From the NCBI RefSeq assembly GCF_988243305.1, contig NZ_OZ547136.1: a stretch of DNA of 64,000 nucleotides. One strand, written 5' to 3'. The notes beneath the pieces are model-generated. The model was not told the origin of the DNA and did not search any database. It saw only the letters and a program-made list of their open reading frames with translations. A program made the translations under genes and the position numbers. This document shows positions 32,096 through 36,027 of the stretch, piece after piece; the stretch's first letter is position 1, and each line of letters opens with the position of its first letter.

Positions 32096-32139
32096 ACTGA
32101 ACCGCCCCGGGTTTCCTGGAGAGTGTTTTATCTGTGAAC

Positions 32140-32611
32140 TCAGGCTGCCAGATCATCGTTTCCGATGGAAGCATAATAAGCTTTTTCTGCTTCTGCCGGA
32201 GGAGTATGGCCCAGCCTTTCCAGCAATCGTCGATTGTTATACCAGTCCACCCACGTGAGTGTGGCCAGTTCCACTTCTGCACGGTTTTTCCAGCTCTTAC
32301 GGTGTATTACCTCCGCTTTGTAAAGACCATTGATGCTCTCCGCCATCGCGTTGTCATACGAGTCGCCTGTACTTCCTGTTGATGCCAGTAATCCGGCTTC
32401 CTTAAGCCGCTGTGTGTAGGCCAGCGATACATACTGAGAACCTTTATCACTGTGATGGACCGTGCCGGACGGTCGACGGGCCCATAACGCCTGCTCCAGT
32501 GCATCCAGCACGAATGTCGTTTCCATGGACGATGAGACCCGCCACCCCACGATGTATCCGGCAAACACATCAATGATAAACGCCACATAGACGAAGCCCT
32601 GCCATGTGCTG
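32140..32611 (-). pseudogene. IS629 orfB, 3' exon portion
   Basis: …[16 protein letters not shown]…HSDKGSQY… DDE integrase core C-terminal part. Confidence 0.8.
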
Positions 32612-32612
32612 A

Positions 32613-34882
32613 GTAGAGTAAGAGGCAGGGCGTAGTCGGACTATTTCCCTGCCTCTCCTCCCCGAACCGGACGTGCACCTTTCAGCGCATCCGGCTCTCC
32701 ATTTAAATGCTGGCGAACGCCATTGCCACTTCTGTAAAGCGCGATGTATACGTGTTTCTGGTCTCCGTCCTCAGATAGGGATTACCTTCGGGTAGCCGCC
32801 AGCGGAACAGCTTCTTGCCTTGCCCCACCAACCGGTACAGTATTTCGCCGCTGAGCTTGCCGTGATTGGTTTTACCAAATAAAACCCACGTTTTGCTCTG
32901 ACCCGGTTTCGGTGATTTACACCACCACCTCATCAGGGAAGCGATACCTGTACGGTATTTGCGGGCCAGCCAGTGAGCCAGCTTCCAGAACACGACACGG
33001 TCGATATAACTGAAGACTTTGGCCTTAAAATCAACGAACTGATAGAACATGGCCCAGCCTTTCAGTTTTCGGTTGAGTTGTTCAGCCATATCGACTTTGC
33101 TTTCACTGTAGTTGCCTGATAACAGTGCTGTCAGCGATGCGGCGAAGTTTCTGGCTTTCTCCTGCGGGATCGTTGAGACCACTCGCATCTCGCCATAACG
33201 ACTGCGTTTGCGAATGATCCTGTGCCCCAGAAAGATAAAGCCGTCATTAACATGGGTGATTTTAGTCTTATCCATGTTCAGCCTGAGTTTCAGACTGCCT
33301 TCGAGCACACCCCGACACTCCTCCCTGATGGCTTCCGCCTGTGCTTTGGTGCCTTTGACGATGAGGACAAAATCATCGGCATAGCGGCAGTACGCCACCG
33401 CGGGTTTCCACTGCCAGTTTTCTCTGACCGCCGTACTTCGGCCCCGTTGGATACTGTTATTCCAGTACCACCGATCTTTTCTGGCTTTCCCGCTCAGGTA
33501 GCGCTCATGCAGGTATTGATCGAACTCATTCAGCATGATGTTCGATAATAGCGGCGATATAGCACCGCCCTGTGGCACACCTTCACTGGCCGCCCGAAAG
33601 AGACCGACATCGATATGTCCCGTCTTGATGGTTTTCCACAGCAGAGTCATGAAACGTGCGTCACTGATCCTGCGGCGTACAGCCTTCATCAGCAGTCGAT
33701 GATGTACGGTGTCGAAGTAACTGGACAGGTCGCCTTCAATCACCCAGCGTCCCCGGGTTTCACCACAGTCTGTGAGCTGTAATTTCACCGTGCGGATCGC
33801 GTGGTGGACACTGCGCTCAGGCCGGAAGCCATATGAGAGCGTATGAAAATCACTCTCCCATATCGGCTCCATCGCCATCAGCATGGCCCGCTGAACAATA
33901 CGATCCCGCAACGCGGGGATACCCAGTGGTCGCAGTTTGCCGTTGCTTTTAGGGATGTAAACCCGTCTGGCGGGCAAGGGCTGGTAGTGGCCTGAGAGTA
34001 ATTCATCCCTGAGGATTTGCAGCTCAACAGCCAGTCTGGCCTGTAGCATTGTTTTGTTCACGCCATCAACGCCGGGGGTATGGGCCCCCTTTGATGAAAG
34101 CGTGATCCGCGCCGCTTCAGCCAGCCATTCTGGTTGTGTTATCAGACGCAGCAGCCGTTGAATCCGTAGGGACGGATCGGTGGCTGCCCATGTGGCAAGC
34201 TTGCGTTGCATTTCGCTGATTATCAAAGGTCTTCACCTCGTTAGGTCAGTTAATTCACGTCGCAAACACATTCAAACTGCTTCCCTTCGCCATGTAATGG
34301 GCTTTCCCCATCGCGGACTACTACGGAAGCTCCGCCAGCCAGCGCGTCATCGGAGCCATGCCCCCTTAACATCCGTCGCTGACCTTCCCCGGTTTACCTG
34401 CCTGGACTCAGGCATACTGAGGAGGCTGCCCGTCGCACTCTTTATCCTTGCTTGCCGCAAGTTGGCAGAAGTCAGCAACGCAAGTGTGATAGACGCTGCT
34501 GCCCCGGTGTTTCGCATACATGTCAAAACACCTTCGACCGGCAGTGCTTACGTATCACTGCCAGTTCCTCCTGCACGGCCTGTCAGATCACGTAGGCCGT
34601 GGTGACGTTTTCAACCCACAGAGGCGGATTAACGGGTTCATGTTCTTCAGCCTTTCAGTACTTAACCTTGAGGATCATCTCGGCTTAGTGATCTCGCCTC
34701 AATCCCCGTTGTCAGCGGGTTACATCACCCTGCGGGCATGCCGCAGGTCACTGCCGCTCAGGCTCTCCACCGTCACACCCGGTGGGATTGTTGGGTTTCT
34801 CATCGTGAGTTACCGGTTCAATATTCCAGACAGACTCGCGGTTCATTTAAGCATCCATGCCCGCCCTGAACTCCGGGCACAC
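32613..34882 (-). mobile_element. Bacterial group II intron (about 2.27 kb)
   Basis: Inserted exactly between IS629 orfB codons …ADFTY | VSTWQ…; 5' end GTGTG, 3' end AC; encodes reverse transcriptase. Confidence 0.8.
32703..34226 (-). CDS. Group II intron reverse transcriptase/maturase
   Basis: 507 aa with RT motifs including YADDFVLIV. Confidence 0.9.
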   Translation of the reverse strand: MIISEMQRKLATWAATDPSLRIQRLLRLITQPEWLAEAARITLSSKGAHTPGVDGVNKTMLQARLAVELQILRDELLSGHYQPLPARRVYIPKSNGKLRPLGIPALRDRIVQRAMLMAMEPIWESDFHTLSYGFRPERSVHHAIRTVKLQLTDCGETRGRWVIEGDLSSYFDTVHHRLLMKAVRRRISDARFMTLLWKTIKTGHIDVGLFRAASEGVPQGGAISPLLSNIMLNEFDQYLHERYLSGKARKDRWYWNNSIQRGRSTAVRENWQWKPAVAYCRYADDFVLIVKGTKAQAEAIREECRGVLEGSLKLRLNMDKTKITHVNDGFIFLGHRIIRKRSRYGEMRVVSTIPQEKARNFAASLTALLSGNYSESKVDMAEQLNRKLKGWAMFYQFVDFKAKVFSYIDRVVFWKLAHWLARKYRTGIASLMRWWCKSPKPGQSKTWVLFGKTNHGKLSGEILYRLVGQGKKLFRWRLPEGNPYLRTETRNTYTSRFTEVAMAFASI

Positions 34883-35300
34883 CGTAAGTAAAATCAGCCA
34901 CCCACAGCTGGTCAGGACGTTCTGCCACGCACTGACGGTTTACGCGGTCACCTGTGGCAACGGTTTTCCGGCTGACGGTAGTGCGGACCTTTTTACCCCG
35001 GAGAACACCGGCAAGTCCCATAACCGCCATGAGGCGCGCCACTGTACATCTGGCCACCCTGATTCCTTCCCGTAACAACTGACGCCAGACTTTACGCACA
35101 CCGTACACCTGATGATTTTCATCGTATACGCGCTGTATCTCTCTCTTCAGCCAGTCATCGTGCTGCGCACGGGCACTGCGTTTATCCGGATGATGTCGCT
35201 GTTGCTGACAATGGTAATACGTTGACGGGGCAATATGCAGTTCGCTGCATACCGGTCCGACCCCGTACTGCTCACGCAGCTTATCCAGCAGTGGCATCAT
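34883..35300 (-). pseudogene. IS629 orfB, 5' exon portion
   Basis: [21 protein letters not shown]…QLWVADFTY then intron sequence. Confidence 0.8.
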
Positions 35301-35623
35301 TTTTTCCAGAGGCGGTCGAACTCCGCCTTCGCAAAATAAGCGGAAGCCTGGCGAAGGATATCGTTACTGCGGCGCAGTTCACGATTTTCACGTTCCAGCT
35401 CTTTCAGACGCTGACGTTCAGCGGTGGTGAGCCCTCCATCACCGCCCCCGGTATCCCGCTCATGCTGGCGAACCCAGACACGCAGAGTCTCCGGCGTACA
35501 GCCAATCTTTGGGGCAATGGAACAAATTGCCGCCCACTGTGAGTCATACTCATCCTGACTTTCCAGAACCATACGAATCGCCCGCTGACGGACTTCGGGG
35601 GAAAAACGAGTATTTTTAGTCAT
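35297..35623 (-). CDS. IS629 OrfA
   Basis: [60 protein letters not shown]…. Confidence 0.85.
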
Positions 35624-36027
35624 CCTGTTTACCTCTTTCTCAGGGAGTTTAGTCTCCAGGATTCCCGGGACGGTTCAGTTTCCATTCATGCTTTTAATCT
35701 TTCCCAAAATAACTAAAGCCAGATGTAACAGGCGAACATGGTAAAGTGTCCGCATATTTGAACCTCGCTGATAACGCCTTCACCTGACAACATATTGTCA
35801 GTGCTTCAGCATGTTAAGCTGTTCTTCTGAAAGGTCGGTAAGCTCCAGGACCATATTCCGACTTATCCTGGAAGGATGGCTGGTTCAGACTTCAGGATAT
35901 GGTTGAGGGTTACCTAGTGATGAAGTCTCTTGATCAGGAGATCTGATCAAGAGACAGCACTGGGTGGGGGTGACCATCTCATATCTATGCCTCCATTTGG
36001 CAATCATCAATTTTGACAGAAATAAAG

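Follow-up and report, generated by a model that had tools for sequence, protein, structure and literature searches.

A copy of the known group II intron E.c.I4 in IS629 orfB within an Escherichia coli chromosomal island

In a 64,000-nucleotide stretch of DNA from NCBI RefSeq assembly GCF_988243305.1 (contig NZ_OZ547136.1; hereafter the window), a reverse transcriptase (RT) gene lies between two parts of the transposase gene of an insertion sequence (IS), and the locus raises the question of whether these pieces are debris or a single nested element and, in the latter case, which element it is and in what condition. A sequence-only reading had placed a group II intron within orfB of IS629 at 32098–35677, and both the coordinates and the anatomy proved correct when compared with the IS ends, with Rfam and with the restored exons. 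At a probability of roughly 0.93, we take the element to be a copy of the known class A intron E.c.I4, structurally intact and at a published homing site in IS629 orfB, that was likely joined to its present surroundings by recombination. That the intron is the catalogued E.c.I4 at a published site had escaped the earlier reading (PMC3522654). For annotation, this means that two "partial IS3 family transposase" pseudogenes and an ltrA gene are one IS629::E.c.I4 composite and not debris.

Structure and identity of the composite

The IS629 copy split by the intron lies on the minus strand and spans 3580 bp of the window (32098–35677), with its parts as listed in Table 1. Its two ends carry 25-bp inverted repeats, TGAACCGCCCCGGGTTTCCTGGAGA at 32098 and TGAACCGTCCCGGGAATCCTGGAGA at 35677, which are of the TGAACCG type at their start and agree at 21 of the 25 positions. 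Deleting the intron in silico gave an IS629 of 1310 bp, a length that fits the IS, with an open orfB of 296 aa reading ...WVADFTYVSTWQGF...; the ligated exons of orfB are predicted to read ...TTTACTTACGTCAGCACA... The restored OrfB keeps the DDE triad at D136, D195 and E231, and the N-terminal part of orfB matches HTH_21 in Pfam. Without the intron, the IS was 97.2–97.8% identical over 1310 of 1310 bp to the depositor-annotated IS629 elements of phages BP-4795, CP-1639 and VT2phi_272. In ISfinder practice, isoforms of the same IS share at least 95% nucleotide identity, and these values lie above that limit. The counterpart fragment in BR1220, a sequence that shares one junction with the window, is named "IS3-like element IS629 family transposase" by PGAP. 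Relatives of the IS without the interruption were found in 3042 complete genomes, and the 3580-bp composite of IS629 and intron itself recurs on many E. coli plasmids, one of them from E24377A, at 99.0–99.2% identity.

The termini of the intron, GUGUG...CUAC in the RNA, fit the group II consensus of 5' GUGYG and 3' AY. The size of about 2.27 kb and the GTGTG and AC boundaries that had been read earlier were recovered as 2270 nt (34882..32613) and GTGTG...CTAC. One detail had to be corrected: the split was said to lie exactly between two codons, whereas the junction falls after the first base of a Val codon (TAC G/GTGTG...CTAC/TC AGC). This placement is unambiguous because a shift by one base would not give back GTC, and the boundaries were also fixed by comparison with the empty site of strain cM8a. 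The junction bears on the order of nesting as well. That IS629 inserted into an older resident element, or that two IS629 fragments came to flank one, might be suggested by the comparison with cM8a, in which the 3' half of the IS is nearly identical and the 5' half 4.5% divergent, but recombination among copies of the composite accounts better for this mosaic. The two halves meet the intron at complementary positions of one 1310-bp element, with not one base lost or duplicated, and the identical junction is found in many genomes and plasmids. With the exact junction refuting it, we hold the reversed order of insertion to be highly improbable.

The ribozyme was recognised by Rfam Intron_gpII (RF00029), which matched 32699..32613 with 64.9 bits (gathering score 40, E = 3e-11), far beyond chance. 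The sequence-only reading had proposed folding domains V and VI, and the minimum free energy (MFE) fold of the two gave z = -6.45 and showed a domain V followed by a domain VI in which A2264 was the one left bulged, in agreement with the Rfam alignment. The MFE fold of the first 656 nt beat 20 of 20 shuffles in stability (z = -2.7) and had exon-binding site 1 (EBS1) in a terminal loop. Ribozyme domains are thus present and the boundaries restore orfB, the two features on which the earlier reading had staked its claim.

The protein of the intron sits in the position of domain IV and consists of RT and X domains directly upstream of domain V: its open reading frame (ORF) stops at 32703 and domain V starts at 32697, five bases (32698–32702) lying between them. 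Pfam assigned to it RVT_1 (E = 3e-34) and GIIM, the maturase X domain, and the NCBIfam equivalog TIGR04416 group_II_RT_mat matched with 336.9 bits against a cut-off of 300. The YADD and PQGG motifs are both intact, and the nearest solved structures were those of LtrA (5g2x, E = 3e-51) and the GsI-IIC RT. The C-terminal 95 aa, in which an endonuclease (En/HNH) domain was sought, matched no Pfam family even at E <= 10. The RT length of 507 aa given by the sequence-only reading holds for a TTG start preceded by GAGG at a distance of 9 nt, and becomes 502 aa when counted from the ATG 15 nt downstream that is used for the RefSeq homologues. We also considered a free-standing RT (retron, DRT or group II-like) lying between two IS629 fragments with no intron involved. 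This could be taken from secondary hits of the RT domain in NCBIfam, where the models of Drt3a, Drt2 and retron RTs matched weakly, at 50–53 bits and far under the cut-offs. It is countered by the ribozyme, whose domains V and VI follow directly on the 3' side of the ORF, by the GUGUG/AC termini and the maturase X domain, and by an orfB that is restored exactly and a match at the level of an equivalog; the ribozyme domains, the restored orfB and the group_II_RT_mat match together refute a free-standing RT, leaving it exceedingly improbable.

Having established a group II intron, we turn to its name. The comparison with catalogued E. coli introns that the sequence-only reading had suggested found a close match: the window intron aligned end to end with NC_009801:4848623-4850893, the E24377A copy that served as our E.c.I4 reference for identity, with 8 mismatches, 0 gaps and 99.65% identity. 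In the Enterobacteriales group II intron catalogue of Leclercq and Cordaux, Table S4 names this copy E.c.I4-2b, and specific positions in IS629, IS911, ISEc16 and ISEc31 are given as target sites of E.c.I4 (PMC3522654). By the naming rule of the group II database, sequences more than 95% identical carry one name (PMC3552965), and as 99.65% exceeds this value, the name E.c.I4 applies. In the scheme of Toro and Martínez-Abarca, both E.c.I4 and S.f.I1 belong to bacterial class A, one of those that have no endonuclease (PMC3552965). An E. coli group II intron whose host gene is given as "IS629" appears in a compilation of 2008 (PMC2198948), and E.c.I4 has stood in the catalogues as an intron of IS629 for some two decades (cited in PMC3522654 and listed in PMC2198948).

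Copies of the intron are also common. We found a near-full E.c.I4 copy (at least 80% covered) in 1873 of 5426 complete E. coli genomes, about a third, and most of these copies were at least 99% identical to the window intron; the insertion sites of E.c.I4 in these genomes number roughly 5,500. Copies are labelled in RefSeq as "ltrA: group II intron reverse transcriptase/maturase" within "IS3 family transposase". Nothing contradicts the identity with E.c.I4, and E.c.I4 in IS629 is already known and is no new finding. With the intron already annotated in RefSeq and found in about one in three complete E. coli genomes, the locus carries little weight as a discovery; its small additions, each to be taken as a proposal, are the reading of the homing site as a D-x-T-Y motif, a second exon-binding site (EBS2) backed by one compensatory change, and a recombination joint in the island.

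Table 1. Features of the IS629::E.c.I4 composite and of its right flank, in window coordinates (IBS, intron-binding site; IRL and IRR, left and right inverted repeats; MFS, major facilitator superfamily)
Feature	Position	Strand	Evidence or detail
Whole composite: IS629 isoform (1310 bp) and E.c.I4 group II intron (2270 nt)	32098..35677	minus	sequence comparison
IS629 5' part: IRL, orfA, frameshift region and N-terminal 139 codons of orfB	34883..35677	minus	Pfam HTH_Tnp_1, HTH_21; ORFs
orfA, 108 aa, HTH_Tnp_1	35623..35297	minus	Pfam
ALIL pseudoknot, stimulator of IS3-family programmed -1 frameshifting	35226..35342	minus	Rfam RF01497, 121.5 bits, gathering score 50
Homing-site 5' exon: IBS2 (34891-34898, GCUGAUUU) and IBS1 (34883-34888, CUUACG)	34883..34898	minus	encodes D-F-T-Y and base 1 of Val
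Group II intron E.c.I4, bacterial class A, 5' GTGTG...CTAC 3', 2270 nt	32613..34882	minus	sense to orfB
Proposed EBS2 ACGUCACC, intron nt 275-282, about 50 nt 5' of EBS1	34601..34608	minus	predicted pairing
Probable EBS1 CGUAAG, intron nt 331-336, in 9-nt loop of hairpin 34540-34562	34547..34552	minus	predicted pairing; MFE fold
RT/maturase ORF, 507 aa from TTG (34226) or 502 aa from ATG (34211); YADD at residue 282	32703..34226	minus	Pfam, NCBIfam
Domain V, 34 nt, AGC triad (GAGC...), GAAA tetraloop, 2-nt bulge	32664..32697	minus	Rfam alignment and fold
Domain VI, bulged branch-point A2264 at 32619, 7 nt from 3' splice site	32615..32661	minus	Rfam alignment and MFE fold
IS629 3' part: C-terminal 157 codons of orfB (integrase core, second D and E) and IRR	32098..32612	minus	Pfam rve, rve_3, rve_2
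Private substitution G120	34763		intron nt 120
Private substitution A202T	33623		intron nt 1260
Private substitution V222A	33562		intron nt 1321
Right-flank MFS transporter	36139-37425		
Right-flank amidohydrolase	37503-39119		
Right-flank YgeY-family hydrolase	39162-40346		
Right-flank diaminopropionate ammonia-lyase	40379-41593		
Right-flank sigma-54 regulator	41974-43719		
IS630 transposase fragment after the right-flank cluster	43949-44698		

The homing site and its pairing with the intron

We compared the sequences in which E.c.I4 and its relatives are inserted. The insertion point was the same, after the codons of a D-x-T-Y motif plus one base, in every insertion that could be read, namely in IS629, IS911, ISEc15, an unnamed IS911-like element and three sites in Tenebrionibacter intestinalis; in IS911, the homologous position is the one occupied in E24377A (locus L002). 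Among the codons of the motif is that of the catalytic Asp which comes first in the DDE triad of the transposase. Because the homing site codes for this conserved motif, it plausibly explains how one intron may invade several members of the IS3 family. Within the window, a six-frame scan for W..D.T[YF] found no further homing sites of the IS3 type.

The pairing that would read this site can be proposed in two parts. The last six exon bases of IS629, CUUACG, are complemented at 6 of 6 positions by the intron segment CGUAAG, and since this segment also occupies a terminal hairpin loop in the MFE fold, we infer that it is EBS1. Among the targets, IS629 alone matches EBS1 perfectly; targets with an Ile codon have A at position -1, opposite C331. 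For EBS2, we propose nt 275–282, which would pair with exon positions -16 to -9 at 8 of 8 positions in IS911 (the E24377A copy, L002), at 7 of 8 in an IS911-like target (L011) and at 6 of 8 in the IS629 of the window. In the intron variant in ISEc15, this segment has the change C276U, and the target base facing it, at position -10, is A; the L002 and L011 targets have G there and IS629 a mismatched U. The pair of changes, C276U in the intron and G to A in the target, looks like one compensatory change and, so far as the aligned copies can tell, argues for EBS2 at nt 275–282. G277 would stand opposite the wobble base of the Asp codon, and both GAU and GAC would be tolerated.

Other segments were tried as EBS2 and rejected. 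GAGAUCA (nt 188–194) would form 7 bp with IS629, but it fails with targets that contain GAC, lies 140 nt from EBS1 and stands beside a motif resembling the CUAAG receptor. UAUCAC (nt 392–397) has the wrong topology, being located 3' of EBS1.

Further copies were sought by scanning contigs with the 5' end of the intron, which yielded 4 loci, all from Tenebrionibacter or Kluyvera; they supplied target sites, though not enough of them to draw a target logo. In the insect-gut bacterium Tenebrionibacter intestinalis, three loci (L006, L007 and L008) match the 5' end of E.c.I4 exactly, on contigs that end within the intron. Their targets are WCGDVTY and WVTDITY, in two IS3-family transposases, and in L006 a D-I-T-Y-like sequence whose upstream frame is broken by stops. 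Judged by these matches, the host range of E.c.I4 reaches beyond Escherichia and Shigella. The ISEc15 variant was found at the homologous D-I-T-Y position. Locus L011 holds an intermediate variant with a 4-nt deletion in domain I, in the IS911-like host and beside a clpK heat-resistance locus.

The composite was also scanned for other features. Besides the genes in Table 1, it contains 6 further ORFs of 82–141 aa (5 on the plus strand and 1 in another minus-strand frame), and these matched no Pfam family. A promoter and terminator scan returned 1 promoter-like and 4 terminator-like sites, no excess over shuffled sequence. A terminator-like hairpin with a T-run (CAGCTGTGGGTGGCTG ATTTTACTTA; 34895–34910, minus strand) ends directly upstream of the insertion site. 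This is probably a coincidence and not a targeting signal like that of class C introns, as such sites occur at chance level in the scan and the hairpin is missing from the IS911 target.

Activity of the copy and a possible mechanism

All the catalytic features that can be recognised in the copy are intact. If they work as in other group II introns, IS629 would be transcribed from its own promoter and the sense-oriented intron co-transcribed, after which the maturase would aid folding of the intron and the intron would be excised as a lariat. The intron ribonucleoprotein would then reverse-splice into intron-less transposase genes of the IS3 family, its target being the DNA for a W-x-x-D-x-T-Y motif, read by the EBS1/IBS1 and EBS2/IBS2 pairings. 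Because the intron-encoded protein has no endonuclease, the cDNA would be expected to be primed by nascent strands at the replication fork, by analogy with other endonuclease-less introns, and insertion would be expected to prefer the template of the lagging strand. For the host element, splicing of the IS629 transcript would give an orfAB mRNA able to yield the full transposase. The suggestion of the sequence-only reading that transposase may still be made in this way is a reasonable one, given that neither the exons nor the frameshift pseudoknot nor the DDE residues are damaged. In unspliced RNA, translation of orfB would stop 21 codons into the intron and leave a 160-aa fragment without the DDE core, so that the mRNA would yield OrfA together with this OrfB fragment, or the matching OrfAB fusion. 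It is conceivable that such a truncated OrfAB, with its DNA-binding and multimerisation parts and no DDE core, inhibits intact IS629 in trans, and that the 3.6-kb composite is a preferred recombination substrate which shuffles island modules and makes chimeric IS; we offer this as a speculation that is quite unlikely to hold.

Several points weigh against the activity and mechanism described here. The proposed IBS2 pairs with the intron at just the 6 of 8 positions given above, and the placement of EBS2 at nt 275–282 is our own tentative assignment, made from the introns and targets compared here. The use of primers from the replication fork is extrapolated from other endonuclease-less introns. 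Compared with four other copies, among them the 92%-identical Kluyvera variant, the window copy has three private substitutions at positions that are otherwise constant, G120 in domain I and A202T and V222A in the RT, and these may bear on its activity. V222A adjoins the PQGG motif, and the residue is Val even in the Kluyvera variant. Splicing or mobility data for E.c.I4 were not found in the literature searched, the primary E.c.I4 papers lying outside that search.

These private substitutions are also one argument for regarding the copy as a dead passenger, that is, a complete E.c.I4 that no longer splices or moves and has permanently knocked out an IS629 carried along with the island. No 100%-identical copy was present among the matches listed from complete E. 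coli genomes, the best reaching 99.9%; the IS has no target-site duplication and apparently arrived by recombination rather than by fresh homing; and several island copies of E.c.I4 have been reported inactive (PMC3522654). On the other hand, the ORF is fully open with YADD and PQGG intact, and the AGC triad and GAAA loop of domain V, the bulged A, both splice-site termini and EBS1 are all preserved. Three changes in 2270 nt are moreover normal variation among copies, as others differ by 3–8. On balance, we consider a dead passenger unlikely, if by no means negligible.

Island context and comparison with known systems

The sequence-only reading had described an intron within an IS within an island, and this nesting is borne out: the IS lies between two low-GC (guanine plus cytosine) accessory clusters inside an E. 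coli chromosomal island, and the window begins and ends in the core genome of E. coli. No tRNA integration site for the island was found within the window. The left flank (24000–32097, ~39% GC) is a second cluster for sialic-acid utilisation, with a lyase, a kinase, an MFS transporter, a KdgM-family porin, an epimerase, nanR and a sialate O-acetylesterase. It is 99.9–100% identical to the island of CFT073 and ATCC 25922, and in CFT073 it lies beside the aerobactin genes. The stop codon of the O-acetylesterase is 2 bp from the end of the IS, reading TAG in the window and TAA in CFT073. The right flank (35678–44698) is likewise low in GC, at about 42%, and holds the genes listed in Table 1; beyond IS fragments, nothing closely matching its cluster was found when the 5426 complete E. 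coli genomes and the PLSDB plasmids were searched. Directly beyond IRL, the right junction reads GTTTCCATTCATGC. Many plasmids of E. coli and Shigella carry short, repeated pieces that match the segment 35678–35977 at 92–95% identity, with no feature annotated; the segment is probably the remnant of another mobile element.

The junctions tell something of how the copy came to its place. There is no target-site duplication around the IS629 (flanks ...GAC/IS/GTT..., window 32095–32100 and 35675–35680), a lack that concerns the history of the copy, whether recombination or an adjacent rearrangement, and not the identity of the element. The left junction has no IS in CFT073; in cM8a it has an intron-less IS whose empty site is identical in sequence, and in BR1220 an IS with the intron. 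The right flanks differ in all three of the IS-bearing sequences that share this left junction, namely the window, cM8a and BR1220. The halves of the IS are a mosaic in comparison with cM8a, the 3' exon being almost identical and the 5' exon differing at 36 of 795 positions (4.5%). Because of the missing duplication, the three different right flanks and the mosaic halves, the composite is probably a joint, mediated by the IS or the intron, that was formed by homologous recombination between two copies of IS629 or IS629::intron, and not the product of retrohoming in place. Tandems of IS and intron longer than 3 kb have been suggested to promote recombination (PMC3522654), and a recombination joint at this locus fits that suggestion.

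Set beside known introns, the window copy is closest to E.c.I4 itself, with which it shares the length of 2270 nt, the RT/maturase without endonuclease and the site in IS629 orfB, at the 99.65% identity to the published copy given above. It differs in its three private point differences (G120 and, in the RT, A202T and V222A) and in its surroundings, between the nan/sialate cluster and the rare diaminopropionate-lyase cluster. S.f.I1 of Shigella flexneri has an ORF 99% identical to that of E.c.I4. The variant of about 92% identity in ISEc15, found in Kluyvera georgiana (L009) and on the E. coli plasmid pPEC414_4 (L010:2501-4770), shares the architecture, length, termini, EBS1 and D-x-T-Y position of the window intron, and it differs by 176 substitutions, by C276U in the proposed EBS2 and by its host, which is ISEc15 and not IS629.

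More distant relatives offer parallels in their way of life. RmInt1 of Sinorhizobium meliloti, a class D intron without endonuclease whose mobility has been characterised experimentally, homes into the transposase gene of ISRm2011-2. It resembles E.c.I4 as an endonuclease-less bacterial group II intron with an IS transposase gene as its natural homing site, and differs in the class of its protein (D instead of A), in the IS family and in the host; its association with an IS has been cited (PMC3522654). With Ll.LtrB and its protein LtrA of Lactococcus lactis (class ML, IIA), the window intron shares the retrohoming logic of a ribozyme with an RT/maturase. LtrA, however, has 599 aa and a C-terminal DNA-binding and endonuclease domain that nicks the target to prime the cDNA, whereas the protein of 507 aa in the window is without it.

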